DNA of 64,000 nt from an uncultured delta proteobacterium (lineage in GTDB: Bacteria; Desulfobacterota; Desulfuromonadia; Desulfuromonadales; CAWANI01). Position 1 is the first letter of the stretch; every line of letters starts with the position of its first letter. The DNA lies in NCBI GenBank assembly GCA_963783365.1, contig CAWANI010000009.1, positions 418,406 to 482,405 on the forward strand. The letters run 5' to 3'. The notes under the pieces were generated by a model. The model worked only from the letters and a program-made list of their open reading frames with translations. It was not told the DNA's origin and did not search any database. The position numbers were made by a program, and so were the translations under genes. Shown in pieces: positions 3,701 to 63,640 of this stretch.

Positions 3701-3750
3701 TTGTCCCCCTGGCCGGTGATGGGTCCGGCCTCGAAAAAACAGCTCCCGTT

Positions 3751-4320: not shown

Positions 4321-4365
4321 TTTTGTGTCCCTTTGGCGAGGTTTGATGGGAGCATCGGAAAAAAG

Positions 4366-5367: not shown

Positions 5368-5377
5368 AGTCCCTCCC

Positions 5378-6256
5378 TCAATAGGTAAGCTTCTTTTTGC
5401 GGATGCGTTTTTTCACCCGGGCGATTCTCTGGTTCAGAATCTGCTGGTCCCGGTAGGTGGTTCGCAAACCTTCCAATTCGCCGAGCGCTTTTTTCAACTC
5501 TCCCTGGCTCTCGAGGACCGTCGCCAGACCGAAGCGGGCTTCGGCGGCGAAGGGGTTCTTCGGCCAATGGCGAAAAACCCGGCGAAACGCCTTTTCGGCC
5601 GCGGCCGCGTTGCCATCGAGGGAATAGGCGACCGCGATGCGGTAGGCCGCCTCTGCGGCCAGGGGGCTGGCCGGGTAATTTTTGAGCAGGCTTTCGAATT
5701 CGATCCGGGCCTGTTCGAAGTTGTTCCGGCGAAAATAGGTATCGGCGATCTCGTATTGGATATGATCCGGATCGGGAGCCCCGCTGTCGAGGAGTTTCTG
5801 GTAAGCGAGCAGGGCATTTCCGTAATCCATGAGCCGGTATTTGTAAATATCGGCGATCTGCTGCCGGGCCCGGATAGCCAGCGCACTGCCCGGATAATCC
5901 CGCACCACCAGCAGAAAGTCGAGCAGGGCCTCGCGGGGGTGTTTCAGATTCAGCTCGAGAGTCTCCCCTGCCTGAAAAAGAGCGCTGGGCGCCAGCCGAA
6001 ACCGGGGATGGTGCCGGTAAATGGATTGAAAGGTCGCTACGGCCCGTTCGGACTCTCCGCGCTCCACCTGAGCTTTTCCTCGGGCAAATTTTCCGGCGAG
6101 AATCCGATCGGAACGACGTCCCCAAAAAAACGCCCCTCCGCTCCCAAAAAGAGCCAACAGGATGAAGGCCAGCAGCAGCGGGCGGCGCTTAGAGTTCCTC
6201 TTCCGGTGCCTCTTCTCCTCCTGAAAAAGCCTCTTCTTCAGCTTCTCGACTTCCAT
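5378..6256 (-). CDS. Membrane-anchored tetratricopeptide-repeat protein
   Basis: ORF 5378..6256. One N-terminal hydrophobic helix ([19 protein letters not shown]) followed by repeated TPR-like A/Y/L patterns. The start is uncertain because it overlaps the gyrA 3' end by 68 nt. Confidence 0.6.
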
Positions 6257-8699: not shown

Positions 8700-8752
8700 G
8701 GTATCTGTCCTTCTTGCGGCCTTCCGGGATTCCCGGATAACGGCACTTTATC

Positions 8753-11140
<2,388 letters not shown>

Positions 11141-11153
11141 TTAAACCTCGTTC

Positions 11154-12245: not shown

Positions 12246-12301
12246 GAAATACAGTTAATATTCGGAAAATGGAAAAATTTTAGTGCACTCCCAACTCAGC
12301 A

Positions 12302-13421
12302 TTATAACCTCATTGGCATGACGACCGCCAGATAATCTTGATCGTCGGGAGGAATCGAGCAGGCCGGGAGAGAGGTTGTCCTTGAGCATCAAACTGATCT
12401 GATCGGTCTGCTGGTTCTGGAGAATATCCAACAGATAACGAGCGTTGAAGCCGATGGAAATCTCCGGACCTTCATAAACGATATCCAGTTCTTCTCTCGC
12501 GTCGCCGAATTCGGGATTTGAAGAAGAAATTTCCATCGTCCCGGCACGGAGAAGAAGTTTTACACCTCGCGATTTTTCATTGGAAAGAATAGACATGCGG
12601 CGTAATGCGTGAAGAAACGGCTCACGCTCGATAGTCGATTTGAATTCGTTGTTTTTTGGAATGACCCGATCGTAATCGGGAAAATCACCGTCGACAAGGC
12701 GCATAACGACAATGGTTTGATCTTTTTTTATAACCGCACTATTTTCGAGAAATCCTATGGAAATATCGGTTTCCCCTTCCTCGGTCATTTTTTTTAATTC
12801 CTGGATTCCTTTTCTGGGAAAAATAACCCCTTTGCGAAGTTCATCTATGTGGGAAATATTCGATTCTCTTTGAATAAGGGAGAGCCGGTGTCCATCGGTA
12901 GCTACCAAACGGAGAAGAAGTTTCTCCTTTTGTTCTAAACTCTGAAAATAGATGCCGTTTAAATTATATTTACTTTCATCCGTAGAAACGGAAAAGGCGG
13001 TTTTGTCGATCATTTCCTTAAGGAGTATGCTTTTTAAAGAAAAAAAGTTACTTTTTTCCGGCAAAGGAAAGTGTGGAAATTCCTCTGCTGAGAGACCGAC
13101 AATGTTAAATAGGGCTTTTCCGCAACGAATTTCAATCCAAGAATTTTGTTTGGTTTGGAAGGCAATTTCCTTTTCTGGAAGTTCGCGGATGATTTCGAAT
13201 ATTTTTTTCGCGGAAACGGTAATTTTTCCAGCAATTTTTACTTCTGCCGGAAATGAGGCCCGCATACCGACTTCAAGGTCCGTGGCCGTCAGGTGAATTT
13301 GGCCATCTTCGGCATCGATGAGAACGTTGGAGAGAATGGGGATGGTGTTCCGTTTTTCCACGATGTTCTGAATGCGAGACAGTCCTTTTTGAAAAACCTC
13401 TTTTTCGATCCTGAAGTCCAT
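12302..13421 (-). CDS. dnaN: DNA polymerase III beta sliding clamp; reading frame broken by one base near the 3' end as sequenced
   Basis: ORF 12255..13421 is beta-clamp-like throughout, but its last ~35 codons are off-frame. Removing one C from the CCC run at about 12348-12350 restores the canonical C-terminus DDQDYLAVVMPMRL with TAA at 12302-12304. Confidence 0.9.
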
Positions 13422-13587
13422 TGGGGCCTCCCATGCACAGGGTACTGTTTCTATGGTTTTGTTTTAAGGTCTTTAGCAGATAGTAGTAAGGGCTGTTGAT
13501 TTGTTGATTCGGGATGTAAGTCCCTGATTTTAAATTAAATATTATGTTGATGGGGCTGTGTTTTATATGTTGACAAAAGGATGTTCG

Positions 13588-13621
13588 CGTGGATAAAAAA
13601 GGCGAGGCTTTTTTATCCACA
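13588..13621. promoter_or_regulatory. Inverted pair of DnaA boxes in the dnaA-dnaN intergenic region
   Basis: CGTGGATAA (13588-13596; reverse complement TTATCCACG, 8/9) and TTATCCACA (13613-13621, 9/9). They form 13-nt inverted arms GTGGATAAAAAAG / CTTTTTTATCCAC, with AT-rich DNA to the left (13520-13570). Confidence 0.65.
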
Positions 13622-13711
13622 GGGTGATCCCCCTATTGATGCACAGCGGAGGAATGGCTTTCCGATAATGGATGACTTATTTTTAATTCATTTCCATTTA
13701 TCTCATAAAAA

Positions 13712-15066
13712 TTATTGAAAAATCATATTTTTTATCAGATTGAGAGTGGCGCGTAGCTGAAAATCCGCTTCCAGATTTTTTTCGATTTTCTTAATGGCAT
13801 GAATGATTGTCGAATGGTCCTTGCCGCCAAAACGATCCCCTATTTCCGGGTAAGAGGAAGAGGTCAGCTGGCGGGAAAGATACATCGCTATCTGGCGGGG
13901 AAGAACCAGTGCCTTAAACGTTTTGCCGATTTAAGATCGGAAATTTTAATGTTGAAATGAAGAGATACGGCTTTTTGAATTTCCTCGACCGTCAGTTCTC
14001 TATTTTTTTCTACCAAAATGTCCTTTAGGACCTCACGGGCCATAGCGAGTGAGACCGGGGTGGACGTCAGACTGGCGTAGGCGCCGATGCGGACTAGAAA
14101 TCCCTCTAATTCGCGGACGTTGCTGCTGACAGAATTGGCCAGGAAGAGGGCCACTTCCTCCGGAAGGTCGATATTATTTTGTTCGGCCTTCATTTTGAGG
14201 ATGGCCTGTTTGGTTTCCACATCCGGGGCCTGAATATCGGCGATCAGTCCCCATTCAAAACGGGACCTCAATCTTTCCTCTAGGCCGGGGATCTCTTTTG
14301 GAAATTTGTCGGATGTCACGACGATTTGTTTGTGAGATTCGTAAAGGGCATTGAATGTGTGGAAAAATTCCTCCTGGGTCCGCTCCTTGCCGGCAATGAA
14401 CTGAACATCGTCGATGAGAAGTATATCCATGGACCTGAATTTATTGCGAAAATCATCCATCTTTGCGTAGCGCAACGAATTGATCAGTTCGTTCATAAAT
14501 TTTTCGGACGTATAGTAGCAGATGCGCATCTCCGGGGATTTATGAAAAATGGCATTGCCGATAGCATTGACCAAATGGGTTTTCCCCAGGCCAACTCCGC
14601 CGTAAATAAACAAAGGGTTATACGTTGTCGCGGGATTCGTTGCAACTGCCATGGCAGCGGCGTAAGCAAACTGATTAGAAGATCCCGAAACGAATTCTTC
14701 AAATGTATATTTGCCGATGAGGTTACCGCTGTTCCAGTCCCTCGGGGGTAGAGTTTTGGTCCGTTCCACCGCCGGAACACGGGGAGGGGGGTCTGGAGGT
14801 GCGGTTGTTTCGACCTTCTCCTGCGAGCGAGGGGCGACCTTCAGCTGAATGCGATAGTCTATCGCGCCGACCCGGGAAAGGGTCGACCGGATGATCTGCT
14901 CGTAGTGTTCCCTGACCCAATCCAGAACGAAGCGGTTCGGAACTTCTAATTTGACCAGGTCTTTTTCCACACCGAGAAACCGGATCGGTTTTATCCAGGT
15001 GTTGAAATGTTGGGGATTTAGTCCCTCTTCAATCAAAGCGAGGGTCTCTTGCCACAGTCTGTGCAT
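13712..15066 (-). CDS. dnaA: Chromosomal replication initiator DnaA; reading frame broken by one base in domain IV as sequenced
   Basis: ORF 13888..15066 has Walker [11 protein letters not shown] and stops at TAG 13888. Adding one base near 13914-13918 restores [45 protein letters not shown]...NMIFQ, ending at TAA 13712-13714. Confidence 0.92.
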
Positions 15067-15102
15067 GAAAATGTTTGCCTGATTTCTTTGGTAAATATTT
15101 AA

Positions 15103-15134
15103 ATATCCACAGACTTATTCACAGTTGTGGATAG
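15103..15134. promoter_or_regulatory. Three DnaA boxes directly upstream of dnaA (oriC / dnaA autoregulation candidate)
   Basis: ATATCCACA (15103-15111), TTATTCACA (15115-15123) and TGTGGATAG (15126-15134; reverse complement CTATCCACA), each 8/9. They sit in the divergent dnaA/rpmH intergenic region where gene orientation switches. Confidence 0.65.
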
Positions 15135-15289
15135 AGGAAATTGACCATTAAAAATGGGACGTTTTCCGCATCGGAAAGCTGAAAAAAAAAGACATTCAAA
15201 GCTAACAAAGGTCCCGGTCGTTTGCAAGGACTATTTGCGTTCGGTTCCCGCGCGGAAGGGACGTTCGAGGAGGAAATAACGTTTCGCTC

Positions 15290-15318
15290 TTGACAGAATT
15301 ATGGATATGTGGTTAATA
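15290..15318 (+). promoter_or_regulatory. Candidate sigma70 promoter of rpmH-rnpA
   Basis: TTGACA (15290-15295), 17-nt spacer, then TTAATA (15313-15318) preceded by TGG. It lies 48 nt upstream of the rpmH ATG. Confidence 0.4.
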
Positions 15319-15365
15319 GTAAATTTTGTCAAAGAATCGAACCAAAGATAGGGAGCTTTAGGAAA

Positions 15366-15515
15366 ATGAAACGGACCTACCAACCGAGTCGAATTCGTCG
15401 GAAAAGAACCCATGGGTTCCGGAAGCGGATGCAAACAAAAAATGGCCAAAGTGTAATCAAGAAACGGAGAGCGCGGGGACGCAAGACCCTGGCTGCTACG
15501 ATACCGTCCAAATAA
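15366..15515 (+). CDS. rpmH: 50S ribosomal protein L34
   Basis: [22 protein letters not shown]... inside ORF 15309..15515. ATG at 15366. Confidence 0.95.
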
Positions 15516-15516
15516 C

Positions 15517-15870
15517 GTGCCTCCCGTCGATTGCGCAGGCAGAGGCGTTTTTCCACCTGAAAGGCGTCTCCGCCGGCGCGAAGAGTTTCAGAGAGTCTGG
15601 CAAAGAGGTGATAAACGGCATTCGCGGTATTTTATTACTGCCGTTGTTGAAAAGACCGAAGGCCCCTCCCGCCTTGGTGTAACAGTTAGCCGAAAGGTTG
15701 GTGGGGCCGTTGAACGCAATCGGGTCAAGAGAATACTTCGTGAGTTTTTTCGCACGCATCAGGATCAATTGGCTGGGTTTGTGGATCTTTCCGTCGTTGC
15801 GAAAAGAGGGGCAGCGGGTCTCAGCTCTGAGGAAATAGGGAGAGAACTCCTTAATTTGCTTCAATTATGA
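15517..15870 (+). CDS. rnpA: Ribonuclease P protein component
   Basis: GTG start 1 nt after the rpmH stop. RNase P protein motif GVTVSRKVGGAVERNRVKRILRE. Confidence 0.9.
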   Translation: MPPVDCAGRGVFPPERRLRRREEFQRVWQRGDKRHSRYFITAVVEKTEGPSRLGVTVSRKVGGAVERNRVKRILREFFRTHQDQLAGFVDLSVVAKRGAAGLSSEEIGRELLNLLQL

Positions 15871-16035
15871 TGGGGAAAATCTTCGGTTCTTATCCTCCTC
15901 TGCTGAAGCGGCGGCAACCAACCTCTCGATTCCCTCTTTCCCTGTGACTCCCTGGACAAGTAGGATATCTGTTTTTATTTGTTTTTCCATCAGTTGTTGT
16001 CCACTAACACCGGGGTCTCGCAATCCGAGAAATAG

Positions 16036-16248
16036 ATGGTCAGAAGAGTCGTTCTTGGACTGATACATTTTTATCAGCGATTCCTTTCCCCCCTCAAGGC
16101 GCCTTCCTGCCGATTTTATCCTTCCTGTTCCTCCTATGCCTGCCAGGCCGTAGAAAAGTATGGTGTATTAAAAGGCGGCATTATGAGTATTGGACGGGTT
16201 CTTCGGTGTCACCCTTTTCATCCTGGAGGGTATGACCCGGTAAAATAA
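16036..16248 (+). CDS. yidD: Membrane protein insertion efficiency factor YidD
   Basis: [43 protein letters not shown]. Confidence 0.9.
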
Positions 16249-16288
16249 TCGGCGAGTCTCCCCTTCCCATGTTCCGGAGCCCAAAAGA

Positions 16289-17923
16289 ATGGAAAACAGA
16301 AATCTGATCATAGCCCTCGTCCTGATGCTTGTCGTCTGGGTGGCCTTTACCGTTTTCTTTCCGACCCCTCAAAAGGGACAGGGACCGCCGGTAACCCAAA
16401 AGAGCACCGAGTCCCAGCTTGCGCTGCAACCGAAAAATAAGACCGAAGTAAAAGCAAAAGCGGTTGTGGCCCAACCGCTAAGCGGCCAATCGATGACTCC
16501 AATCGTGGCGGCGCGCGGCGAGCGTGACCTGACCATCGATACGGATCTCTTTCGGGCTGTTTTCACCAACGCCGGGGCGCGCCTTAAAAGTTTAAAACTA
16601 AAAAAATACTTCGTTTCGACCTCTCCGGGTGCGGCAAAGGTTTCGCTGGTCGATGTCAAAGATGCCCGGCTGGCCAGCTTGCGTACCAGTGGCAGCGATG
16701 GTTTGAAACTGCCCGCCGATGCCCTGTTCAGCATCTCGATCAAGGATAATTCAATCCGGCTGCAGGGGAATGAATCGCGAGATATCGTTTTTTCCTATAA
16801 GAATAATAACGGCCTGGTTCTGCAGAAAATCTATACTTTATACGGGGATAGCTATAAATTCGGTCTAAAACTGCGCTTGGTTCAAGAGGGCGTTACACCC
16901 GTCAGTGGGAGGGTGGACCTCTCCCTGGTGCATCCATGGAATGAATCGATGGAAGGGGGACGCTATTCCTTTGTCGGTCCGGTGTCCCTGGTAGGCGAGA
17001 AGGTAAAGACTGAAAAAGTTAAAGACCTCAAGGACAAACCGATCACCTATCAGAGCGACCTGGTTTGGACGGCCTTTGAAAATAAGTTTTTCATTGGTGC
17101 CGTGGTTCCGCTTAAAAATGCCGCGACCCAGGTCCATATTCAGAATCCGGATGGAATCGTCGAAAATACCCTGCAAAGTCCCCCTTTGACTCTCGATCAG
17201 GGACAGGCGGTAACCTTGGATTACCTGCTTTACTTTGGGCCCAGGGATCTGGATATTCTTAAAAAGGTCGATCATCAACTTAATAAGGCGATCGATTTCG
17301 GCTTCTTCGGGCCGATTGCCCGTCCACTGCTCAGCTTTCTAAAATTCTTCTACCGTTACGTGGGGAATTACGGTGTCGCCATTATTCTGCTCACCGTGAT
17401 TATCAAACTACTTTTCTGGCCCCTGACGCAAAAGAGCTATACGTCCATGAAGGCGATGCAGACCCTTCAACCACAAATGCAGAAAATACGCGAAAAACAC
17501 AAAAACGACAAGGAACGTCTCAACAAAGAAATTATGGAACTCTATAAGAAAAACCGGGTCAATCCTCTGGGCGGATGTCTGCCCATGATTATTCAGATCC
17601 CCGTGTTTTTTGCCCTTTACGAAGTCCTGCTGAGATCGATTGCTCTGCGACAGGCACCGTTTATTTTTTGGCTGACCGATCTTTCGAGCAAAGACCCCTA
17701 CTATATAACGCCCATTATTATGGGGGTCACCATGTTTATTCAACAGAAGATGAGTCCAACCACGATGGATCCCACCCAGGCGAAATTGTTTCTGGCAATG
17801 CCCATCGTATTTACTTTTCTCTTTCTGAATTTTCCTTCGGGTCTCGTCGTGTACTGGCTTGTCAATAACCTGTTGACCATCCTGCAGCAGTATTTTATTA
17901 ATCGAAAACCCCAAGTCGCCTGA
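16289..17923 (+). CDS. yidC: Membrane protein insertase YidC
   Basis: 544-aa ORF. N-terminal TM helix plus periplasmic domain. Conserved C-terminal core LYKKNRVNPLGGCLPMIIQIPVFFALY. Confidence 0.95.
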   Translation: MENRNLIIALVLMLVVWVAFTVFFPTPQKGQGPPVTQKSTESQLALQPKNKTEVKAKAVVAQPLSGQSMTPIVAARGERDLTIDTDLFRAVFTNAGARLKSLKLKKYFVSTSPGAAKVSLVDVKDARLASLRTSGSDGLKLPADALFSISIKDNSIRLQGNESRDIVFSYKNNNGLVLQKIYTLYGDSYKFGLKLRLVQEGVTPVSGRVDLSLVHPWNESMEGGRYSFVGPVSLVGEKVKTEKVKDLKDKPITYQSDLVWTAFENKFFIGAVVPLKNAATQVHIQNPDGIVENTLQSPPLTLDQGQAVTLDYLLYFGPRDLDILKKVDHQLNKAIDFGFFGPIARPLLSFLKFFYRYVGNYGVAIILLTVIIKLLFWPLTQKSYTSMKAMQTLQPQMQKIREKHKNDKERLNKEIMELYKKNRVNPLGGCLPMIIQIPVFFALYEVLLRSIALRQAPFIFWLTDLSSKDPYYITPIIMGVTMFIQQKMSPTTMDPTQAKLFLAMPIVFTFLFLNFPSGLVVYWLVNNLLTILQQYFINRKPQVA

Positions 17924-17934
17924 ATTTTGTTGGG

Positions 17935-18570
17935 ATGATTAGCGATTTTTTTCACCTTGAATTGTCTGCTAAATCTTTGGAGAAAGCGGTCGCCCTAGCA
18001 CTGGAAAAGTGGAAATGCACCCGGGCTGAAATAGATCTGGAGATTGTGGAGGCTCCCCGCCGTGGGTTTCTGGGCCTCTTCGGAGCGCGGCCGGCACGGG
18101 TGGTCTTCCGCCTGATCGATCGTGGTACCCTGGCCGCCAGGATCACCGAGCATCTGCTTGCCTTGTGCGGGTTGGATGCCGAGGTGGAAGTTGAGCCCGG
18201 ATCCTCACGGATAGACCTGGCCGTTAAAAGTGCTGAGCCGAGTCAGGTCATCGGCGCGGGGGGACAGAACCTTGAGGCGCTGCAAAGCCTGGTTATTTCG
18301 CTGACCGATCGTTATGCCCCGGGTGATCGCATTCCCATCGTTGTCGATGCGGATAATTATCGTGGTCGCCGGCGGCGGGAGATGGAACGCCTGGCTCGAA
18401 AACTTTGCCGGAAGGTGCGCCTGGGCGGAGAAACTGTGACGTTACCGCTTGGGTCCCGGGAGGACAGCCGCAATTTTCAATTGGCATTGAAGGATGAAAT
18501 CGGCATCGAATTTCGGGCTTCTGGTCGCGGGAAAGAAAGGAAGCTCGTAATCTTCCCCAAAAAGGGCTAA
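17935..18570 (+). CDS. jag: Jag/KhpB-type RNA-binding protein (Jag_N, KH, R3H)
   Basis: Position after yidC. KH-like VIGAGGQNLEALQ and a C-terminal R3H-like segment. Confidence 0.8.
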   Translation: MISDFFHLELSAKSLEKAVALALEKWKCTRAEIDLEIVEAPRRGFLGLFGARPARVVFRLIDRGTLAARITEHLLALCGLDAEVEVEPGSSRIDLAVKSAEPSQVIGAGGQNLEALQSLVISLTDRYAPGDRIPIVVDADNYRGRRRREMERLARKLCRKVRLGGETVTLPLGSREDSRNFQLALKDEIGIEFRASGRGKERKLVIFPKKG

Positions 18571-18573
18571 GTC

Positions 18574-19944
18574 TTGGCAGCAACTACCGATACCATTGTG
18601 GCTCCGGCCACCCCGATTGGCGACGGAGGGGTCGGCATTATCAGACTCTCCGGCGCAGAGGCCCAAAACCTTTTGGGAAAGGTATTTCACCCGGCATCCG
18701 CCGAACATCCTCTCGAAACCCACCGGCTTTACTACGGAAGAATCCTGAACTCATCCGGGGAACACCTGGACGAAGTCATGGCCGTTCTCATGCGTGGACC
18801 GCGTTCCTACACGCGTGAAGATGTGGTTGAAATCCATTGTCATGGCGGCAGAGTGGTCATGGGGCGGATCCTCGACCATCTCCTTGAGCTGGGGGCTCGA
18901 TTGGCCCACCCCGGGGAATTTACCCTTCGCGCATTTCTTAACGGCCGGATCGATCTGGCGCAGGCAGAGGCCGTTATCGATCTTATCCACTCCCGCAGTC
19001 AAGCAGCCGGCAACGTGGCCCTCGGGCAGCTCGAAGGGAGACTTTCGGGCGAAATACATCGATTACGCGAGTCTCTGGCTGATCTGCTGGCGCTGGTCGA
19101 AGCGCACATCGACTTTCCCGAAGAGGAGATCGGTGGCGAGGACTACAGACGCCTTCGGTTGCACGCCGGCGAGGTTTTACAGAAAATTCAGGTTCTCCTC
19201 GCTACCTTCGAAACAGGTCGCCTTCTTCGAGAAGGGCTCTCCGTTTTGATTCTCGGACAACCCAACGTCGGCAAAAGTTCGCTTTTGAATGCGCTTCTTG
19301 GCGAGGGAAGGGCCATCGTAACGGAAGAGGCCGGTACTACCCGGGATATTCTCGAAGAGAATCTTGTTCTGGGTGGCTTTCCTCTTCGCCTGGTCGATAC
19401 GGCCGGAATTCGGGTGGCGGAGAATGCCATTGAGAGGGAAGGAGTGCGGCGGGCAAAGGCCAAAGCCGCGGCCGCTGATCTGGTGCTCCTCGTTGTGGAT
19501 GGGGCGCGGCCACTTTCCGATGGCGATCTTCTGGCACTCGAGGCCTGTGAGGATAAAAATATTTTGTTGGTGATCAATAAATGTGATTTAGGCACCCTCC
19601 CCCTACCGAATCCCTTTGCCGAGCTTCAACAGATTCGCATCTCCGCTCAAAAAGGGATTGGTCTGGATGAGCTCAAAGATGCGTTGGTGAACCTTTTCTC
19701 CGGTGGCGGCGGGCTGGAGTCCCGGGAGTCGGTCCTTCTCTCCGATCGGCGGCATCGGGAGGCCCTTCTTCGCTCACGGATGGCCCTTCAGGGGTTCTTC
19801 GGAGCCCTTGAGGAGGATCAGTCTTTCGAATTTTTGGCTTTCGAACTACGGGAAGCCCTTGACGCCCTGGGGGAAATTACCGGAGAAACGGCTCCGGACG
19901 AGATACTGAACCGGATCTTCTCCCGCTTTTGCATCGGCAAATGA
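18574..19944 (+). CDS. mnmE: tRNA modification GTPase MnmE
   Basis: TTG start. DTIVAPATP N-terminus, G1 GQPNVGKSSLLN, C-terminal FCIGK. Confidence 0.95.
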   Translation: MAATTDTIVAPATPIGDGGVGIIRLSGAEAQNLLGKVFHPASAEHPLETHRLYYGRILNSSGEHLDEVMAVLMRGPRSYTREDVVEIHCHGGRVVMGRILDHLLELGARLAHPGEFTLRAFLNGRIDLAQAEAVIDLIHSRSQAAGNVALGQLEGRLSGEIHRLRESLADLLALVEAHIDFPEEEIGGEDYRRLRLHAGEVLQKIQVLLATFETGRLLREGLSVLILGQPNVGKSSLLNALLGEGRAIVTEEAGTTRDILEENLVLGGFPLRLVDTAGIRVAENAIEREGVRRAKAKAAAADLVLLVVDGARPLSDGDLLALEACEDKNILLVINKCDLGTLPLPNPFAELQQIRISAQKGIGLDELKDALVNLFSGGGGLESRESVLLSDRRHREALLRSRMALQGFFGALEEDQSFEFLAFELREALDALGEITGETAPDEILNRIFSRFCIGK

Positions 19945-54592: not shown

Positions 54593-54662
54593 CCTCCAGC
54601 CTCCAGCCTCCAGCCGCCAGCCGCCAGCCTCCAGCTGTCAGCTGTCAGTCACTGGTCACTGA
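54593..54662. repeat. Heptanucleotide tandem-repeat array (10 units)
   Basis: CCTCCAG x3, CCGCCAG x2, CCTCCAG x1, CTGTCAG x2, then TCACTGG and a partial TCACTG unit, all contiguous. It fills the tatD-tcdA intergenic space and overlaps the last tatD codons. Confidence 0.9.
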
Positions 54663-55440
54663 TTTTCAAAATCCTTGAGGCGTTTTCCGTTGTGATCCGT
54701 GCCACCTTCTCTTCGCTCCACCCCCGGATTTCGGCCACCCTGGCGGCCACCAGAGGGAGGTACGCCGGGTGGTTCTCTTCGCCGCGGTGGGGATGGGGCG
54801 CCTGGTCCGGAGCGTCGGTTTCGAGGACAATCCATTCCGGGGGGATCCTCTTCAGCACCTCTGGGCCGCGGCGGGCTTCGGGGAAGGTGACGGCGCCGCC
54901 GAAACCGATGGCGAACCCCATCTTGATGGCTTCCTGAGCGGTTTCGAAGCTTCCTGAAAAGCCGTGCAGGATACCGCCCACCGTGGCGGACCCCTCCTCC
55001 TTCAGAATCCGCAGAAGGTGGTCCGTTGCCCTGCGGCAATGGATCAGAATCGGCCGGCCGGCGGCGACCGCAAGGCGCGCCTGGGCGCGAAAGGCGTGCT
55101 CCTGAAGTTCTGTGGCGACGTCCTTCAGCTGGGCGTCGAGGCCGATCTCGCCCACTGCCGCGACGGCCGGATCCGCCAACAGGGTGGCCAGCTCCGCCTC
55201 GGCATCCCGGGTCCACTGGGCCGCGGCCTGGGGGTGCAGACCGGGCGCCGCCCAGACGCCCGGCACCGAATGGGCCAGGCTCAGGATCTGCGCCCACCCC
55301 TCCCGGGCCACCCCAGGGATCAGATAGCGCCGCACCCCGCCCAGTCGCGCCTGAGCCAGCTCCTGTTCGAGGGCCTTGCGCAGAAGGGGGGCGTCAAGGT
55401 GAACGTGGGTATCGAAAAGAAAAGGCGCTTCCCGGATCAT
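54649..55440 (-). CDS. TatD-family metal-dependent hydrolase
   Basis: FDTHVHL, GEIGLD, ILHGFSGS, ETDAPD. ATG 55440 (MIREAPF) lies within ORF 54649..55506. Confidence 0.88.
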   Translation of the reverse strand: MIREAPFLFDTHVHLDAPLLRKALEQELAQARLGGVRRYLIPGVAREGWAQILSLAHSVPGVWAAPGLHPQAAAQWTRDAEAELATLLADPAVAAVGEIGLDAQLKDVATELQEHAFRAQARLAVAAGRPILIHCRRATDHLLRILKEEGSATVGGILHGFSGSFETAQEAIKMGFAIGFGGAVTFPEARRGPEVLKRIPPEWIVLETDAPDQAPHPHRGEENHPAYLPLVAARVAEIRGWSEEKVARITTENASRILKISDQ

Positions 55441-55587
55441 CGGTAATGATGCTATCATAACCACCGCCTTCAGGGGAAGATGGCCCGGGTGATTAATCCT
55501 TGCCATCGACCGGGGGTTCGTGTTAAGAGCTAAGAGGTTGAATTTTCATCAAAAAGTATTCGATATCGGCAGGCATGGAGGCGCATT

Positions 55588-57318
55588 ATGGCGCAAGCGA
55601 CCGTCAGGAACCGCTCGTATATCAGAAAACTTCTCCTCATCACGCACCTTGTCGGCTTGGTCGCAGGGGCGCTCTTTCCCTTCCTGACTCTACCGCTTCT
55701 CGGCCCTGCCGCCCTGACCCTCCCCTTCTTTCTTCTCTGTCTGGCGATGGGCTGGGGGGTGGGAGCGCTCATCTTTCTGGTCGTCAACGCCACCCTCAAA
55801 AGCCAGCTGCGCCGCCAGATCGCCCTGCTGCGCCCTCTGGCCGGAGAGATCGCCGTTTCGGGCGATTCGCCCGAGCAGCTGCAGGAGGCGGTTGAGCTCT
55901 CGGTGTCCCAGGTCGAGGCTTTCATCCGTGAACTGTTCTCCACCCTCGATGAGCTGATCCCCCATCACCGCTCCTTGAGCGAGTTGAGCCGGTACATGAG
56001 CGATCGGGCGCAGGAGGGGCTCGCCGCGGCCCGCACCACCCGCCAGGATATCGAAGCGATCGAAGAGAAACAGGACGGGGTTCTCGCCCAGGTTGAGAAC
56101 CTCTCGGAGCGCTCTCAGGACGAAGCCGCCCTCTCCCGCGAGCTCTCCGCCTCACTGGAGGAGATGGCCGATGCCATGGAACACTCCACCGGCCAATTCC
56201 TCGAAACCACCAATACCGTCGACGAGATGGCCAGCAGTATCCGGGAAGTTGCCCTGCAGGCCGACGAAATCGCTCTTTCGGTAGAGAGCACGGCTCACGA
56301 TCTCGATGCCATTGGCGATTCTCTGGAAAAGATCCGTGGTGGCGCCTACGATAGCGCGCAAGAGGCAGAAACGGTGAGAAAAGACGCCGATGAGGGGTTT
56401 GCCGTCGTACAGAGCGCCATCGAGGAGATGGAGCGGATCGAAGAGGAGAGTCTCAAGGCCACCGAGGCCATGGAACGTCTTTCCTTTCAGACGGGAGAGG
56501 TTGCCAAAATCATCCAGGTGATCCGGGAACTCGTCTCCGATACGGAGCTGCTGGCCTTCAACGCGGCGATTATCGCGGCGAAGGCCGGAGAGGACGGCAA
56601 AGGGTTCTCGGTGGTCGCCGATGAGATTCGGGATCTGGCCGACCGCACCACGGCCAGCGCCCAGGATATTCACCGCATCGTCAAGGCGATCGGCGGCGAC
56701 ACCCAGGAGGTGACAGAAGCGGTCGCCGCCACCGGCCGGCGCATCGGCAAGGGAAAGCAGCTCTCCCTCTCCACCGGCGAGGCGCTGCGCAAGATCGCCG
56801 CCAGTTCCAGTCAGGCCGCCAGAACCTCCGAAGAGATCGCCATTCTTACCCGCGAACAGGGGGAGCGCGCCCGGGCGCTGTTGAACGACGCCGGCAGCAG
56901 TCTGCGGTCGGTGCAGTCCATTGCCCGCGCCATGCAGGAGCAAGGGACCGGCATCACCCGGATTCAGGAAGGGGTCACCCAGATGAAGGCCGCCTCGGAC
57001 CAGATCGCCCGAGGAATGGAGGAGCAGGTGCGGGCCAACCGCCAGTTCGATAAAGGGCTGTCCGAGCGAGAGACGCAGGTGCAGACGATCTTCGAAGCGA
57101 CTCAGTTCTGGAAGATTACGGCGCAGAAGGTCTTTTCCCACTTCGCGACCTCGGAGGTCAGGCTGACGAAAAATGCCGAAAAGGCCGCCTTTCTCACCCG
57201 CGAGGTGGCGACCCTGGAAAAACTTGCCGACAAATTGAAGGACAAGGCCGAGGTCTTCGAACGCCCCGAGCCCGAAAGCGCCCGCGAGTCGGCGTCGGTG
57301 GCCGCATTCCAAGAGTAG
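55588..57318 (+). CDS. Methyl-accepting chemotaxis protein
   Basis: Two N-terminal TM helices. Highly conserved signalling hairpin LLAFNAAIIAAKAGEDGKGFSVVADEIRDLADRT. Confidence 0.92.
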   Translation: MAQATVRNRSYIRKLLLITHLVGLVAGALFPFLTLPLLGPAALTLPFFLLCLAMGWGVGALIFLVVNATLKSQLRRQIALLRPLAGEIAVSGDSPEQLQEAVELSVSQVEAFIRELFSTLDELIPHHRSLSELSRYMSDRAQEGLAAARTTRQDIEAIEEKQDGVLAQVENLSERSQDEAALSRELSASLEEMADAMEHSTGQFLETTNTVDEMASSIREVALQADEIALSVESTAHDLDAIGDSLEKIRGGAYDSAQEAETVRKDADEGFAVVQSAIEEMERIEEESLKATEAMERLSFQTGEVAKIIQVIRELVSDTELLAFNAAIIAAKAGEDGKGFSVVADEIRDLADRTTASAQDIHRIVKAIGGDTQEVTEAVAATGRRIGKGKQLSLSTGEALRKIAASSSQAARTSEEIAILTREQGERARALLNDAGSSLRSVQSIARAMQEQGTGITRIQEGVTQMKAASDQIARGMEEQVRANRQFDKGLSERETQVQTIFEATQFWKITAQKVFSHFATSEVRLTKNAEKAAFLTREVATLEKLADKLKDKAEVFERPEPESARESASVAAFQE

Positions 57319-57384
57319 GAAGAGAAGCAGCCGAAAGGTAAAACCGCTTTTTCCCCCGCCAGGGGCAGAAAGGAAAAGACAGGC

Positions 57385-57639
57385 ATGAGAACCACCTATA
57401 CCACGCAGGGCACCTGTTCCCGGTTTATCGATATCGAATGGGAAGGGGAGCAGATCAAGGAAGTTCGTTTCATCGGCGGCTGCGCCGGCAATACGCAAGG
57501 GGTTGCGGCCCTGGTCCGCGGGATGGCGGTGCAGGAGGCGGCCGCGCGTCTGAGGGGGATCGTCTGCCGGGCCGGGACGAGCTGTCCGGACCAGTTGGCC
57601 CGGGCCCTTGAGCAACTTCAGCTGAAGCAGGCCTGCTGA
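57385..57639 (+). CDS. TSCPD-domain protein (TIGR03905-like)
   Basis: 84 aa. FIGGCAGNTQG ... GTSCPDQLA. Confidence 0.75.
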   Translation: MRTTYTTQGTCSRFIDIEWEGEQIKEVRFIGGCAGNTQGVAALVRGMAVQEAAARLRGIVCRAGTSCPDQLARALEQLQLKQAC

Positions 57640-57670
57640 TCTCTGAGGGAAAATCAGGTGGAGTAAAAAA

Positions 57671-57695
57671 GGCGCGGCATTTGCCGCGCCTTTTT
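57671..57695. terminator. Bidirectional intrinsic terminator
   Basis: GGCGCGGC-ATTT-GCCGCGCC (8-bp GC stem) flanked by A6 and T5. It lies between the convergent TSCPD gene and the efflux operon. Confidence 0.85.
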
Positions 57696-57698
57696 CAT

Positions 57699-57890
57699 TT
57701 ATCCTTCCCTCACCCCGAGTTTGCGCAGAATCGTCATCATCGGACACCAATCGGTGAAAGCGCTCTGAAAAAGATTCAGACCGACAAAGGCGGTGAACAG
57801 ATACCAGTAGGGGGAGACGGCGTAGCCCAGCAGCAGGCTGAGCAGGATGAAAAAGCCGGCGATCAGGCGCAGGTAACGGTTAACGGTCAT
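57699..57890 (-). CDS. DUF2892 (YgaP-like) small membrane protein
   Basis: MTVNRYLRLIAGFFILLSLLLGY...FQSAFTDWCPMMTIL. ATG 57890 overlaps the RND stop (ATGA). Confidence 0.75.
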   Translation of the reverse strand: MTVNRYLRLIAGFFILLSLLLGYAVSPYWYLFTAFVGLNLFQSAFTDWCPMMTILRKLGVREG

Positions 57891-60800
57891 GGCTGAAATC
57901 TCCTTGCGTGTTTTTCGGCTTTTTTGCCGTAGATGAGCCAGTAGACGACGGGGATCACCACCAGGGTGAAGGCGGTCGAGGCGAAGACCCCGAAGATGAT
58001 CGACCAGGCGAGCCCCGAGAAGATCGGATCGAGGGTGATGACCCAGTTGCCGAGCAGAGCGGCGCCCGCCGTGAGGAGGATCGGCCGCAGGCGCACGGCG
58101 CCGCTTTCGATGATCGCCTCCTTGAGCGGAACGCCCCGGCGCAGGGCGTGGTGGATGAAGTCGATGAGGATGATCGAGTTGCGCACCACGATCCCGGCCA
58201 GGGCGATCATGCCGATCATCGCCGTGGCGGTGAAGAAGACGGGAGTGTTGTACCCTCCCACCTGGTGGTTCATGATCAGGTTGAGGAGCCAGAAGCCGGG
58301 CATGATGCCGATCATCGTCAGCGGGATCGCGCCCATAATGATCAGCGGCATGGCGTAGGAGCTGGTCTCGATCAGCAGCAGGATGTAGATCATGACCAGG
58401 GCTGCGCCGAAGGCGATGCCCAGGTCGCGAAAGACATCGAGCGTGATCTTCCACTCCCCCTCGCCGTTCCAGACCACGCTGGTGCCGGTGGGCAGGGAGT
58501 GCTTCTTGAACCACGAGGAGAGATTGAGAATGGCATTGACCGGGCTCTTGCCGGCCATATTGCCGAAGACGTAGACCACCCGCTGGAGATTCTTGTGGTA
58601 GATGGTCGGGGCGAGGGTTTCGTGTTCAAAGCGCCCCAGTTCCGAGAGACGCACAAGTTTGTTCCCGGCCCCGTGGACATCGAGGGCGCCCAGCTCGGAG
58701 GCCGAGGAGCGGCTGCGCAGAGGCAGGCGCTCCTCGATCCGAAGGGGATTGCGCTCCGAGGGGACGTGAACTGTGCCCACTGTCTGGCCGCCCAGGGCTA
58801 AGGCCAGGGTGCGGGCGATCTGCGCGTCGCTCACCCCGGAGAGAGCCGCCTTTTCCTTGTCGGGGACGAAGTGAAGCCGCCGCTGGGGGGCTTCGACGGT
58901 ATCGTCGACATCGACCACTTTGTCCTCCCGCTCCATGCGGGCCCGCACGATCTTGGCCGAGGCGATCTGCTGAGCGTAGCTGATCCCGGGGCGGGCGTAG
59001 ATCTCGGCGGTGAGGGTGGCGATGACCGGCGGGCCGGGGGGGACCTCGACGATTTTCAGATTGGCGCCGTGGGCCCGGGCGATGCGGGTCAGATCGTTGC
59101 GCAGCCGCAGGGTGATCTCGTGGCTCTGCTGGGCGCGCTCACCCTTGGGGGCGAGGTTGACGCGGATATCGGCCACGTTCGGCCCGTGGCGCATGTAGTA
59201 GTGGCGGACCATGCCGTTGAAGTCCATGGCGCTGGCGGTGCCGACGTAGGATTCGAAGTCGGTCACCTCGTTGACCGTGCCCAGGTAGTCCTCCAGGGCC
59301 CGCACCGCCGCGTCGGTCGTCTCCAGGGTGGTCCCCTCGGGCATGTCGACCACCAGCTGGAACTCGTTCTTGTTGTCGAAGGGGAGCATCTTCATCGGCA
59401 CCAGGTTGAACAGCGGCATGGCCATGGAGCCGAGCAGCAGCACCACCACCGCCCCGACCAGCAGCCAGGCCTTGCGCCGCGAATCGATGAAGGGCTCGAG
59501 GATGCGCCGGTAGACCTGGTAGATGCGGCTCTCCTCGAGGACGAACTCCTTCTCCTGCTTGCCGTACTCCCCCTTGAGGACGTGGTAGCTCATCCAGGGG
59601 GTGATGGTGAAGGCGACCAGCAGCGACATCAGCATGGTCAGCGGGACGTTGATCGCCATCGGCCGCATGTAGGGCCCCATCATGCCGGTGATGAAGAGCA
59701 TCGGCAAAAAGGAGAGGATGACCGCCAGGGTCGCCAGGATCACCGGCGGCCGCACCTCGTCGACGGCGGAGAGGACCGCCTCGCGCGGCGGCTCCTTCTT
59801 CATCTTGAAATGGCGGTAGATGTTCTCGACGTCGACGATGGGGTCGTCGACCAGCAGGCCCAGGGCCAGCACCAGGGCGAAGAGGGTGACCCGGTTGATG
59901 GTGTAGCCGAACCAGTAGTTGACCATCAGGGTCAGCGAATAGATGATCGGGATCGAGACCGAGACGATGAAGGCCTCGCGCCAGCCCAGGGCGAAGAGGA
60001 TCAGCGCGAGGACCGTCACCATGGCGATCAGCAGCTCCTCGATCAGCTCGTTGACCTTGTGGTTGGCGGTCTCGCCGTAGTCGCGGGTGACCCGCACCTG
60101 GATGTCGTCGGGGATGATCTGTCCCCTGCATGGCGTGCACGGCGTCGATCACCTCGTTGGCCACCACCACGGCGTTGGTCCCCTTCTTCTTGGCGACGGC
60201 GATGTTGACCGCCTGGTACTCGGTGCCCGTCGCGGCCGCCGCTTGGCGTCGCCGGCGGGGCCGAAGCGCAGCCGGGTGTAGGTCTGCGGCTCGGCCGGGC
60301 CGTCGCTGACCTTGGCGACGTCGCGCAGGTAGACCGGCGCGCCGTGGTCGACCCCGACCACCAGCCGCGCGACCTCGCGCGCCGAGCTGAAGAAGGTGCC
60401 GCCGCGCACCAGGATCTCCTGGTCGTCCCGCTCGAAAGCTGCCGGCCGGCAGCTCCAGGTTGGCGCCGGCAAGAGCCCGGCGCACGTCGAGCAGAGCGAT
60501 GCCCCGGGCGGCCATCGCCTCGGGATCGATCGCCACCCGCACCTGGCGGGGGCGGCCGCCGATGACCGTGGTCACCGAGGTGTTCTTCACCGACTGCAGC
60601 CGGTCGACCACCTCCTCGGCGACCCGGCGCAGCTCGTAGTCCGAATCGCTGCTTCGAGTAGAGGGTGAGGTTGACGATCGGCACGTCGTCGACGGCCACC
60701 GGCTTGATCACCCAGCCGGTCACCCCCGGCGGCACCAGGTCGGTGTGGGTGCTGATCTTGTTGTGCAGCTTGACCAGCGAGGCGATGCGGTCCTCGCCGA

Positions 60801-61115
60801 CGTAGAAGCGGGCGGTGACCACCGCCATGCCGGGGCGGGACATGGAGTAGACGTACTCCACCCCGTCGACCTGCCAGAGGAGCTTCTCCAGGGGGGTGGC
60901 GACGAGCTTCTCCACCTCCTTGGCGCTCGCCCCCGGCATGTGGACGTAGACGTCGGCCAGCGGCACCACGATCTGCGGCTCCTCCTCCCGGGGGGTCAGC
61001 ATCAGCGCCGCGGCGCCGGCCACCAGGGCGAGCAGGATGAGGATGACCGACAGGTTGCCGTCGAGGAACTTGTCGACGATGCGGGTCGGCAGGGAGTGTT
61101 TCCGACGCTCGCCAT
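57887..61115 (-). pseudogene. RND efflux permease (CzcA/CusA/AcrB superfamily); 5' third disrupted by at least six frameshifts as sequenced
   Basis: ORF 57887..60097 is an intact 736-aa C-terminal part. The N-terminal part is spread over three frames: IVDKFLDGNLSVILILLAL..., VDRLQSVKNTSVTTVIGGRPRQVRV..., FERDDQEILVRGGTFF..., YQAVNIAVAKKKGTNAV... ATG at 61115. Confidence 0.85.
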
Positions 61116-61118
61116 CGA

Positions 61119-62232
61119 TCAGCCCTCCACCCGGGCGCCGTTGCGGGCCTGCTCGGTGCCGGTGGCGACGATGGTCTCGCCGGGGCGCAGCCCGGAGAGG
61201 ATCTCCACCTGCTCGCCGAGGGTGCGGCCGGTGCGTACCAGCCGAAAGTGCAGAATCCCTTTTTCGACCGTATAAATCGCCGGTTAGCTGCCCGCGGGTG
61301 ACCAAGGCGCTACGCGGAATGAGCAGCGTCTTCCGGCTGCCGCCGGCGAGGCTCGCCCGGGCGAACATGCCGGCGGAGAGCCCTTGAGCATCCTGGCAGG
61401 ACAATTTTGACTTCGAAGGAGCGGCTGCTGGGATCTGCCGCGGGAAGGATGTCTTTGACCTGGCCGGCAAAGGAGCGGCCGACAGCAGGCACCGTCGACG
61501 CTGAAGGAATCCCGCCGATTCGCACCTTCCCGAAAAGCGATCTCGGGCAGATTCACCCGCACCTGCCAGCTCCCCGCCGCGGTCGAGGACCAGCAGGGGC
61601 GTGCCGGGCATCACGGTCGTGCCCGCCTCCACCTTTTTGCGCACGATCCGCCCGGCAAAGGGGGCGACGACGCGGGTGTAGGAGAGGGCCGTGCGGGCCG
61701 CACCTCGTGCCGCGACGGCGCCGTCGCGGGCCGCTCGGGCGGCGGCGAACTGGTGCCGGGCCGTTTCCAGTTCGGTGCTGACGCGGTCCATCTCCTGCGG
61801 GGTGACCGCTTCGTCGGTGAACAGCCTGCGGTAGCGGGCTTCGGTCTTTCGAGCCAGCTCGAGCCGGGCCTGGGCTGCGGCCATTTCCCTTCTGCTTGCT
61901 GGAGCGCCGCTTTGGCTTCGGCCAGCCGATCGCCGGCAACGTTGTCGTCGAATGGTGAGCAGCGGCGCGCCCCGTCGGACACGGTCCCCCTCGCGGACCA
62001 GGATCCGGTCGACCTGGCCGTCGATGCGAGCGGCCAGGACCCCCCGGTCGGGGCTTTCGACCGTACCGACGAAGGTCTCGGTCCCGGTCACTGAGCCGGT
62101 GGCCACGGTGGCCAGGGTCACGCCCTTGATCACCGGAGGCTTCCCTCGGTGCGTCCCGGTTCGATGTTGCCTCCGCAGGCGGCCAGGATGAGCAAGGAGC
62201 AGCAGGCTGCAGCAGATGGCGGATTTCTTCAC
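61119..62232 (-). pseudogene. RND membrane-fusion (periplasmic adaptor) protein; at least eight frameshifts as sequenced
   Basis: GTG 62232 overlaps the OMP stop (GTGA). The lipobox LLILAACGG sits in a second frame. Pieces KPPVIKGVTLATV..., DDNVAGDRLAEAKAALQQAE, EMAAAQARLELARK..., VRIGGIPSASTVPAVGRSFAGQVKDI... and IYTVEKGILHFRLVRTG...ARVEG* lie in alternating frames. Confidence 0.8.
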
Positions 62233-63583
62233 GGCTTCACCTCGTCGGGCAGAAAAGTTTTCAGGAACGTCCCATTCTGGAAGCGGATGTTGCCGAGGGC
62301 CATGCAGCAGGCCGGCCTCGGCCTTCACGGCGTCGAGGCGGGCCTGGTCCAGGGCGCTCTGGGTGCCGAGCAGGTCGGAGAGATTGGCCAGTCCGGCCTG
62401 GTAGCGCTCCAGGGTCAGGCGGTGTCCCTCCTCGGCCTCCTTTACCGCCTCTTGGGCGGTGGCGAGGTTGAGGCGGGCTTCTTCGGCCCGCCGCTTGGCT
62501 TCCTCGACCTGCAGGTTCGCTTCGCGGGCGGCGTCGCAGACGCTGGGCATCGACGGCCCGCTTGAGGGCCTCGGCGCGGGCTGTTTCCTTCGGCCGCGCC
62601 GACAGCCGTCGAAGAGGTCCCAGGTGAGCCCGACCCCCACCGTCCAGCTGCTGCCGTCGGCGCCGAAGGGGGTGGAGGAGTCGTGCAGGGCGTAGGAGGC
62701 CTGCAGGCCGACCCTGGGAAGGTAGGCGGCCTTGCTCTGGCGGTAGGCGAGGTCGGCGGCCTGGGACTGCAGGGCGAGGGCCTGCAGGTCGGCCCGCTCG
62801 GGCTTGCCGGCGGATCGATTTGCTCGCCGAAGAGGGCGGGGGTCAGGGGGACGGCGATGTCGAGGTCGTCCGCCGGCCGGCCCAGGGCGAGGGCAAAGCG
62901 CCGGCGGGCGATGGCCAGGTCGTTTTCGACCGTCAGCAGGCGGCGTTCGGTCTCGGCGAGAAAGACCCTGGCGCGCAGCTCGTCGGCCTTGAGGCCGATG
63001 CCGGCCTGGCGGCGCTGGCTCGGCGACCCGCAGCATCTCCAGGGCGTCCTTGTGCGAGGCCTGCGCCCAGCCGAGGGCGGCGTGGGCCCGCTGCAGGGCG
63101 AGGTAGGCGGCATAGGCGCCAAAGGCGATCTGCTCTTCGCTCCAGCGGGCCGTGGCCGCGGCCGCCTCGGCTCCCTTCTGCGCCCGGTGGTAGCCGTAGC
63201 TGATGTCGGGGTTGAACAGGGGCTGCTCCAGGGTTACCTTGGTTTCGAAATCCCTGGTGGTGCCGGGATGATTGTAGGGGGCGGCGCTCGGGAAAAGAGT
63301 TGAGATCCTCCTGGTTGAGCGTCATGAACATGCTGTTGCCCGGCTCGTTGGTGATGGCGAAGTTTTCCGCCGCCGTCACCTTGGGCAGATAGTAGCTCTT
63401 GGCCTCCCCGGCGGCGTGGCGGGCGGCCAGGGCCTGCTGCCGCGCCGCCATCGGCGGCCGGCCGTTGGCTCACCGCCTCGCGCAGGGCCTGCTTCAACCC
63501 GACCGTTTTGGTGCGCGGCCATGGCGGCCGGCACCGAAAAGCAGGGAAATAACGATGAGTAAAATCAAACCTTTTTTGCTCAT
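62229..63583 (-). pseudogene. TolC-family outer-membrane efflux protein; at least eight frameshifts as sequenced
   Basis: ATG 63583 with signal peptide MSKKGLILLIVISLLFGAG. Later pieces TVGLKQALREAVS, MAARQQALAARHAAGEAKSYYLPKV..., YNHPGTTRDFETKVTLEQPLF..., GIGLKADELRARVFLAETE..., KPERADLQALALQSQAADLAYR... and LNLATAQEAVKEAEEGHRLTLERYQAG... lie in three frames. Confidence 0.8.
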
Positions 63584-63611
63584 CGCACACCTCACAAAAC
63601 ATTCAAAAAAA

Positions 63612-63640
63612 CATATATATCATCTCTCCGATAAGGTCAA
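63612..63640 (-). promoter_or_regulatory. Candidate sigma70 promoter of the efflux operon
   Basis: Minus strand: TTGACC (63640-63635), 16-17-nt spacer, ATATAT/TATATG (63618-63612). It lies ~30 nt upstream of ATG 63583, which has a GAGG RBS. Confidence 0.4.

Follow-up and report, generated by a model that had tools for sequence, protein, structure and literature searches.

The frameshifts that interrupt an efflux operon in the genome record of an uncultured Desulfuromonadales bacterium are very probably consensus errors, introduced when reads of two related bacteria were merged, and the organism probably carries an intact, biologically ordinary operon. It occupies 63583..57887 on the minus strand of the window, i.e., the whole 64,000-nt stretch of DNA that was analyzed. 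Three-frame translation confirmed that it can be read only by hopping among frames, as had been claimed in an earlier note made from the sequence alone.

A native tripartite efflux operon

The locus is an ordinary native three-gene RND efflux operon, most probably intact in the organism and accompanied by a small YgaP-like membrane protein. Its parts are as follows.

63593..63640, minus strand: putative promoter-like region, with TTGACC at 63640..63635 and then an AT-rich TATATAT stretch resembling a -10 element
62229..63583, minus strand: TolC-like outer-membrane factor gene, 447 aa after deletion of 11 single-nt insertions
61119..62232, minus strand: periplasmic adaptor (MFP) lipoprotein gene, 368 aa after correction of 8 insertion events and 2 deletions
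57887..61115, minus strand: RND permease gene, 1073 aa after correction of 5 insertion events in its first third
57699..57890, minus strand: YgaP-like small membrane protein gene, 63 aa, intact, with a start that overlaps the RND stop (ATGA)

In the close relatives L081 and L082, an intact 447-aa gene is collinear with the corrected outer-membrane gene and contains PF02321, the domain precomputed for the outer-membrane factor orthologues. Against TIGR01844, the corrected protein scored 111.9 bits (E = 3.5e-32), below the curated cut-off of 225. The adaptor gene starts with GTG in a 4-nt overlap with the stop of the upstream gene (62232..62229), and a second overlap of this length is present at 57890..57887. 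The corrected adaptor protein carries a lipobox (LLAAC|GG) and scored 218.6 bits against TIGR01730 (RND_mfp family), higher than the cut-off of 94.9, and its protein cluster has four further members, each intact and 368 aa long. The final 736 codons of the RND gene (57887..60097) form an intact ORF, to which the 1073-aa proteins P0001 and P0002, both with PF00873, showed 98% and 96% identity, respectively. The corrected length and the presence of PF00873 in close relatives agree with an RND permease of ~1000-1100 aa with an ACR_tran domain. NF033617 was scored on the close relative P0001, not on the corrected window protein, and gave E = 9.8e-144, below its cut-off; every NCBIfam subfamily model stayed below its cut-off for the pump. 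The YgaP-like protein differs from that of L081 by one amino acid, and its orthologues were called with PF11127 in L081, L082, and L088.

Tripartite RND systems of the AcrAB-TolC, MdtABC, and CusCBA type share with the window the order of outer-membrane factor, lipoprotein adaptor, and ~1070-aa pump, as well as the family matches to TIGR01730 (above cut-off), PF02321, and PF00873. The pump and channel of the window reach no equivalog or subfamily cut-off, so no substrate class can be assigned, and the window adds a translationally coupled small YgaP-like membrane gene downstream. A GAGG ribosome-binding site was read from the sequence at 63593, ahead of the ATG start codon (63583). The promoter-like upstream region has 2 mismatches to L081 in 87 nt, and a consensus promoter scan did not flag the TTGACC site.

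All three operon genes are intact in L081, L082, and L088, and likewise in L086, L087, and L093 as far as their contigs extend, while L090 and L094 hold an intact adaptor gene only; intact genes were thus observed directly in all of these other assemblies. DctPQM lies upstream of the operon in the closest relatives (L081, L082, and L083) and in the sister L086, and BON directly upstream in L088. Downstream, YgaP-like, TSCPD, and MCP genes follow wherever the contigs of the relatives reach that far. The orthologous operon has a GC content of 65-70% in all relatives and was assembled there without frameshifts. A foreign, horizontally acquired operon was rejected because of this same placement and similar GC. 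Together with an insertion-biased spectrum (24:2, see below), they also speak against the earlier suggestion of a recently acquired operon undergoing inactivation. Two Logan contigs of the same strain were found, both from run ERR11523667: L089 (11593-18262) and L085 (54648-57831), which ends at 57831 and so stops short of the operon. Other Logan contigs with the native adaptor belong to other runs.

Position and type of the frameshifts

The indels were placed by three-way nucleotide alignment of the window with L081 and L082, both close relatives with intact genes. This revealed 26 window-specific events: 21 single-nt insertions, 3 two-nt insertions, and 2 single-nt deletions.

60119..63542, no strand: indel-bearing tract, 26 events in 3424 nt (7.6 per kb), from the three-way alignment and a site-by-site view with the sister operons
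63542, 63514, 63449, 63301, 63023, 62823, 62813, 62596, 62583, 62538, 62305, 62189: insertions
61947, 61579, 61542, 61517 (2 nt), 61496, 61397, 61279, 61108 (2 nt), 60651, 60433, 60246 (2 nt), 60119: further insertions
62147, 61887: deletions

The outer-membrane gene holds 11 events, the adaptor gene 10, and the first third of the RND gene 5. The hop counts estimated earlier were at least 8, 8, and 6, respectively. The two long ORFs reported at 60043..63036 (997 aa) and 59139..60611 (490 aa) do exist and are chimeric or off-frame. From 60118 down to 54662, the adjoining 5.4 kb, no indel was found relative to L081. Homopolymer-type sequencing error was rejected since most insertions lie outside homopolymers. 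Half of the insertions (12/24) fall just before a third codon position, where one third would be expected; this is not significant alone and was not used.

Once the 24 insertions were taken out and the 2 deletions filled, the genes were free of stops, at 447, 368, and 1073 aa. The corrected genes have dN/dS values of 0.18-0.26 against L081, and 59% of the substitutions are at third codon positions. The description of the operon as otherwise pristine therefore holds, and the argument that a lack of substitutional decay favors a sequencing or assembly failure was correct. The third-position bias, together with the sharing of substitutions with outgroups, led us to reject the idea that the substitutions stem from non-evolutionary errors.

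A tract of mixed alleles

Distance profiles, site patterns, and a run test delimited a region in which the window combines alleles of two species.

59300..63560, no strand: hybrid-allele tract

The window differs from its own species (L081, L082, and L083) by 6-13% across the outer-membrane gene and the RND gene's first half, and by only 1-4% in the adaptor gene. Where it diverges from its own species, its distance to the sister species (L086 and L088) is reduced accordingly. The comparison of substitutions and indels with the nearest RND operons, as proposed earlier, gave 292 differences from L081 in the tract beside the 26 indel events. The window carries the L086/L088 sister allele at 251 of these sites, a private base at 21, and a three-way difference at 20; the control pair, L082 vs L081, shows 48 sister-allele differences and 27 private ones. 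In short patches, the window switches between native and sister alleles (189 runs, against 303 +/- 11 in shuffles). A terminal branch as short as these site patterns imply is compatible with no clock-like tree but is compatible with a hybrid sequence. No match above 89% identity to the corrected outer-membrane protein was found among 5.8 billion clusters, and the exact corrected proteins were absent from the protein collection searched, in which the 736-aa ORF is present. The adaptor cluster has four further members, none with any of the 11 substitutions specific to the window.

All 26 indel events lie inside the excess-divergence tract at ~63.56-59.3 kb. Their density is not proportional to the visible substitutions: the adaptor gene has 10 indels and only ~30 substitutions, and a simple fixed chance of error per SNP therefore does not fit. 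To explain this misfit, we assume that the second haplotype aligned very poorly across the adaptor gene, at a divergence of 32-48%. The N-terminal third of the RND gene has a GC content of 70.3% in the window, against 65-67% in both parental types, and G/C alleles were adopted preferentially (37% vs 15%). To account for this GC excess, one must invoke a second haplotype that is richer in GC and was not sampled, or else a consensus step biased toward GC.

Inserted bases as allele doublets

In 17 of the 21 single-nt insertions, the window has retained the L081 base and added the sister allele of that same site. When every possible insertion was scored in the same way, 7.0 such doublets were expected (P about 5e-6), and stricter scoring still gave 12/21, where the null rate was 0.18 (P = 6e-5). 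The rate at which insertions match the sister allele (81%) is near that of the substitutions (86%). Merging two haplotypes into one consensus would yield doublets of this kind, and we know of no mutation process that inserts the allele of another species beside the native one.

These results bear on the possibility that the indels are nonspecific errors of reads or consensus, arising from locally low coverage or high G+C and involving no second haplotype, with the substitutions representing a real divergent allele of this strain to which the indels are unrelated noise. Isolated indel errors do occur elsewhere in the record, in low-GC DNA. The indels in the operon are spaced fairly evenly, about 1 per 130 nt, with the substitution-poor adaptor gene included, and 24 of the 27 inserted nucleotides (89%) are G or C in a region of 69% GC. 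Random insertions would, however, match the neighboring sister allele in ~7 of 21 cases, not 17, and no indels are present in the equally GC-rich DNA just downstream (58.9-59.5 kb, 65-68% GC). The private alleles of a real divergent lineage should also be about as numerous as those of its partner, not 21 vs 251. We therefore regard unrelated errors as unlikely. The GC spot counts behind the earlier proposal of a failure in very high-GC DNA were exact (75.0%, 58.3%, and 45.0%), and a sequencing or assembly failure stands as the outcome. High GC as its cause is not supported, because the relatives were assembled without frameshifts at 65-70% GC, and because the indels follow the mixed-allele tract, with inserted bases equal to the alternative alleles of adjacent sites.

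Indels elsewhere in the record and in an independent assembly

The same record holds independent indel errors outside the operon. A single-base deletion at 13916 breaks dnaA and a single-base insertion at 12356 breaks dnaN, both essential genes located in low-GC DNA. Both are intact in the Logan contig L089, which has 99.66% identity to the window over 6.67 kb. The long ORFs that were checked with Pfam look full length (gyrA, gyrB, yidC, mnmE, a hybrid kinase, and the T2SS ATPase).

L083, a noisy assembly made independently from the same species, carries 11 single-nt insertions and no deletions in its RND gene, at positions other than those in the window; 9 of the 11 are doublets. High-mismatch stretches contain 32 of its 38 indel events, and its outer-membrane and adaptor genes have neither mismatches nor indels. 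A single sample yielded both L081 and the sister L088, demonstrating that related populations co-occur.

Origin of the frameshifts

We propose that, during metagenome assembly or polishing, reads of a sister population would have piled onto the contig where the two operons could be aligned. The consensus would then have switched haplotype in short patches, emitting both alleles in succession at about two dozen polymorphic sites (+1 insertions) and neither allele at two sites (-1 deletions). Both the technology behind the reads and the precise step of the software are inferred. Long-read metagenome assemblers are known to collapse similar genomes into consensus contigs, in which residual consensus indels lead to frameshifts (PMC8302730, PMC9262707), and the matched relatives L014 and L040 (named MFD...) are nanopore-only MAGs (PMC12313526). 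Collapsed-haplotype errors of long-read metagenome assemblies, e.g., from Flye followed by Medaka, share with the window a consensus of similar genomes, small ORF-breaking indels, and confinement to polymorphic stretches (PMC8302730, PMC9262707). The type usually described concerns homopolymer length, whereas the insertions in the window are non-homopolymer and equal the alternative allele of the adjacent site. We found no description in the literature of an error that places both alleles in tandem.

The GC-biased mosaic could also be a real interspecies recombination tract, formed with patchy, GC-favoring mismatch repair in a natural Desulfuromonadales population, in which the operon is inactivated or the indels alone are artefacts on a genuine mosaic allele. 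Interspecies recombination mosaics are known, e.g., from pneumococcal pbp alleles, and share with the window the alternation of native and sister-species blocks within conserved genes. The patches in the window, however, measure only tens of nucleotides and alternate well over 100 times within about 4 kb, and they are accompanied by junctions that are out of register, which real recombination does not create. We consider this origin quite improbable.

It is very unlikely that the operon is a real pseudogene, i.e., a mosaic allele acquired by homologous recombination with a sister species and now undergoing inactivation through genuine small insertions. A native/sister mosaic could in principle result from recombination if mismatch repair were patchy and GC-biased; the tract begins where interspecies homology begins; and efflux operons are dispensable. 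Bacterial pseudogene decay likewise shows several frameshifts in a dispensable operon. Indels in bacterial pseudogenes are, however, biased to deletion, and neither the deletion-biased spectrum with its tail of long events nor the neutral substitutions or in-frame stops of a pseudogene were found. All events are of 1-2 nt, with 24 insertions vs 2 deletions, and the substitutions follow a pattern of purifying selection, so that there is essentially no neutral decay despite 26 indels. Decay would also not explain inserted bases that match sister alleles, by any mutational process we know of. Moreover, dnaA and dnaN are frameshifted in the same record yet intact in a 99.7%-identical contig, and a second long-read-style assembly (L083) has like insertions at other positions.

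Expression through many programmed +1 ribosomal frameshifts or RNA editing would agree with the otherwise clean frames, but it is extremely unlikely: the 24 sites have no common motif and lack homopolymer or slippery contexts, the genes of close relatives need no shift to encode the same proteins, and we know of no comparable multi-site recoding in bacteria.

Implications

With the frameshifts read as errors of a merged consensus, their weight lies mainly in data hygiene. Taken at face value, the record would carry three pseudogenes, or chimeric ORFs of 997 and 490 aa, and would also show dnaA and dnaN as broken. This could distort pseudogene counts, surveys of resistance or efflux genes, and estimates of evolutionary rate. 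The allele doublet, i.e., an inserted base equal to the alternative allele of the neighboring site within a SNP-dense hybrid tract, may offer a cheap, read-free way to detect collapsed-haplotype consensus errors in long-read MAGs. Biologically, the frameshifts are of little weight, as a normal efflux operon is almost certainly present in the organism.

An operon native to the lineage

The RND efflux operon occupies four genes on the minus strand within 63583..57699 of the window:

63583..62229, minus strand, outer-membrane factor gene
62232..61119, minus strand, lipoprotein adaptor gene
61115..57887, minus strand, RND permease gene
57890..57699, minus strand, small YgaP-like membrane protein gene

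Only the last 736 permease codons and the small YgaP-like gene are in open frames; all coding sequence upstream of these codons can be read only by hopping between frames, as the earlier note had described. The 4-nt start-stop overlaps that it reported were found at 62232..62229 and 57890..57887, its two large ORFs (997 and 490 aa) are both present and, as it held, chimeric or off-frame, and its single-line spot GC values proved exact on recount.

The 736-aa ORF matches the full-length 1073-aa RND proteins P0001 (98% identity) and P0002 (96%). The contigs that carry these, L081 (ENA assembly) and L082 (JGI metagenome), are from the same species and have the same neighbourhood as the window, with DctPQM upstream of the operon and YgaP-like, TSCPD, a 576-aa MCP and TatD downstream, and their operon genes are intact (447, 368, 1073 and 63 aa). 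This shared neighbourhood and the intact orthologues indicate that the operon is native to the lineage. Its GC content is 65-70% in every relative compared, and the GC-richness is thus inherited and was no bar to correct assembly elsewhere. Of the two origins proposed earlier, a local sequencing or assembly failure is supported as the outcome, but very high GC as its cause is at odds with equally GC-rich relatives that were assembled correctly, and recent acquisition of a foreign operon is at odds with the conserved neighbourhood and composition. The assemblies without frameshifts (L081, L082, L086-L088, L090, L093 and L094) either are named in the manner of SPAdes or MEGAHIT output or come from JGI or Logan.

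Inserted bases match sister alleles

The frameshifts are best explained as consensus errors from the collapse of two related haplotypes. A three-way nucleotide alignment revealed 26 window-specific events (21 single-nt insertions, three 2-nt insertions and two single-nt deletions), all of them inside 63542..60119 and none in the next 5.4 kb. G or C made up 24 of the 27 inserted nucleotides, and most insertions did not extend a homopolymer. With the indels removed, the genes are free of stops and differ from L081 at 51, 11 and 47 amino acids, mostly conservatively, with dN/dS of 0.18-0.26. Biological decay fits less well than haplotype collapse, as does GC-driven failure.

Many insertions form doublets, in which the native L081 base is kept and the inserted neighbour equals the sister allele of the same site. 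At 60119, where L081 has ACA and L083 (another same-species contig) has ACG, the window reads ACAG; CTC and CTG became CTGC at 62305, and GGG and GGC became GGCG at 61279. Doublets accounted for 17/21 single-nt insertions against 7.0/21 expected (P about 5e-6), the expectation being obtained by scoring every possible insertion in the tract under the same placement-tolerant rule as the observed ones. A stricter rule retained 12/21 (null rate 0.18). Sites at which the sisters and L081 differ likewise hold the three 2-nt insertions and both deletions. No mutational process is known to us by which the allele of a neighbouring species would be placed next to the native base. The merging of two haplotypes into one consensus, on the other hand, could yield both alleles, provided that a mismatch was encoded as an insertion and a match. 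Assemblers are known to merge similar genomes into one consensus, and leftover long-read consensus indels break ORFs (PMC8302730, PMC9262707); for related taxa, nanopore-only MAGs made with Flye and Medaka exist (PMC12313526). The doublet signature itself is not described in these three papers.

A hybrid tract

The indels lie in a tract of hybrid alleles (about 63.56-59.3 kb). Over the outer-membrane gene and the 5' half of the RND gene, the window differs by 6-13% from L081, L082 and L083, which are 0-5% apart there; in the adaptor gene, where indels are many and substitutions few, the distance to these three falls to 1-4%, and beyond the tract the window is about 1% from L081. The extra differences are evolutionary in character: 148 of the 250 are at the third codon position, and through them the window lies nearer than L081 to the outgroups and the sister species. 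Two sister populations, L086/L087 and L088, supplied orthologous operons as references for the tract. Among 292 differences from L081, the window had the sister allele at 251 and a private one at 21, as compared with 48 and 27 for the control pair L082 and L081. With so short a terminal branch, no clock-like tree fits, but a mixture of the two allele types does. The sister alleles are clustered in short patches (189 runs versus 303 +/- 11 when shuffled), and those with G or C were adopted more often (37%) than those with A or T (15%). In the N-terminal third of the RND gene, the GC of the window is slightly above that of both sampled parental types, which calls for either a second haplotype outside the sampled set or a GC bias in the consensus step. 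A true recombinant mosaic may still lie beneath the artefactual indels.

The outer-membrane and adaptor genes hardly vary among L081, L082 and L083 (0-3% divergence), and the C-terminal half of RND and the flanks are 3-14% different (window 63560-60100 against 59400-57900). The low divergence of the 5' part could be due to recombination or a recent sweep.

A sibling assembly and co-occurring populations

L083 (ERZ25039549 contig_60117, 395 kb), an independent assembly of the species, has a "contig_N" name that may point to a long-read assembler. It is noisy, with 38 gap openings relative to L081 in 16.5 kb (locus 2450-18948), and its indels break the genes for DctM, DctQ/DctP, RND and MCP. Its RND gene carries single-nt insertions at 11 positions, all different from those in the window, and lacks deletions; 9/11 insertions are doublets. 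Its insertions are mainly G or C and non-homopolymer, and its indels lie mostly within SNP-dense stretches, with none in its mismatch-free outer-membrane and adaptor genes. Judged by these features, L083 bears the same artefact signature as the window.

L081 and L088 come from one sample (ENA assembly ERZ23510489), where two related Desulfuromonadales populations thus occur together, the kind of co-occurrence that the proposed haplotype collapse needs. Coverage values in their contig names are about 10 and about 6, respectively, and their orthologous operons are 7-48% divergent.

Signs of error elsewhere in the record

Two further genes are affected:

about 15066..13712, minus strand, dnaA, split by a 1-nt deletion (G missing at 13916)
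13421..about 12270, minus strand, dnaN, with a 1-nt G insertion at 12356, CTC[G]ATT

At 13916 the window has CGTTT-AAGG against CGTTTGAAGG, and the C-terminal DNA-binding domain of DnaA runs on in another frame. In dnaN, the conserved C-terminus ...DYLAVVMPMRL is swapped for off-frame text. L089, a Logan contig of the same strain (run ERR11523667), is 99.66% identical to window 11593-18262 and carries intact DnaA (451 aa) and DnaN (372 aa). The replication-origin cluster (dnaN, dnaA, rnpA, yidC and jag; window 12000-18000) has 41-52% GC versus about 58% for the window, and this is repeated in L089, so it does not stem from a chimeric join.

L085, from the same strain and run, matches window 54648-57831 at 99.87% identity without gaps. 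It ends at 57831, 56 nt short of the stop codon of the RND gene, which may reflect graph branching at the start of the polymorphic operon, or chance. Its other end coincides with 54648-54661, where neither L081 nor L082 aligns continuously with the window. This stretch, with a short tandem CAGTGAC CAGTGAC, is an intergenic length polymorphism or a repeat: L081 is about 56 bases longer here and L082 10 shorter.

Predicted function

No substrate can be assigned, since the pump and channel match only below subfamily cut-offs. The adaptor passes TIGR01730, and the operon proteins are predicted to be a generic tripartite RND system.
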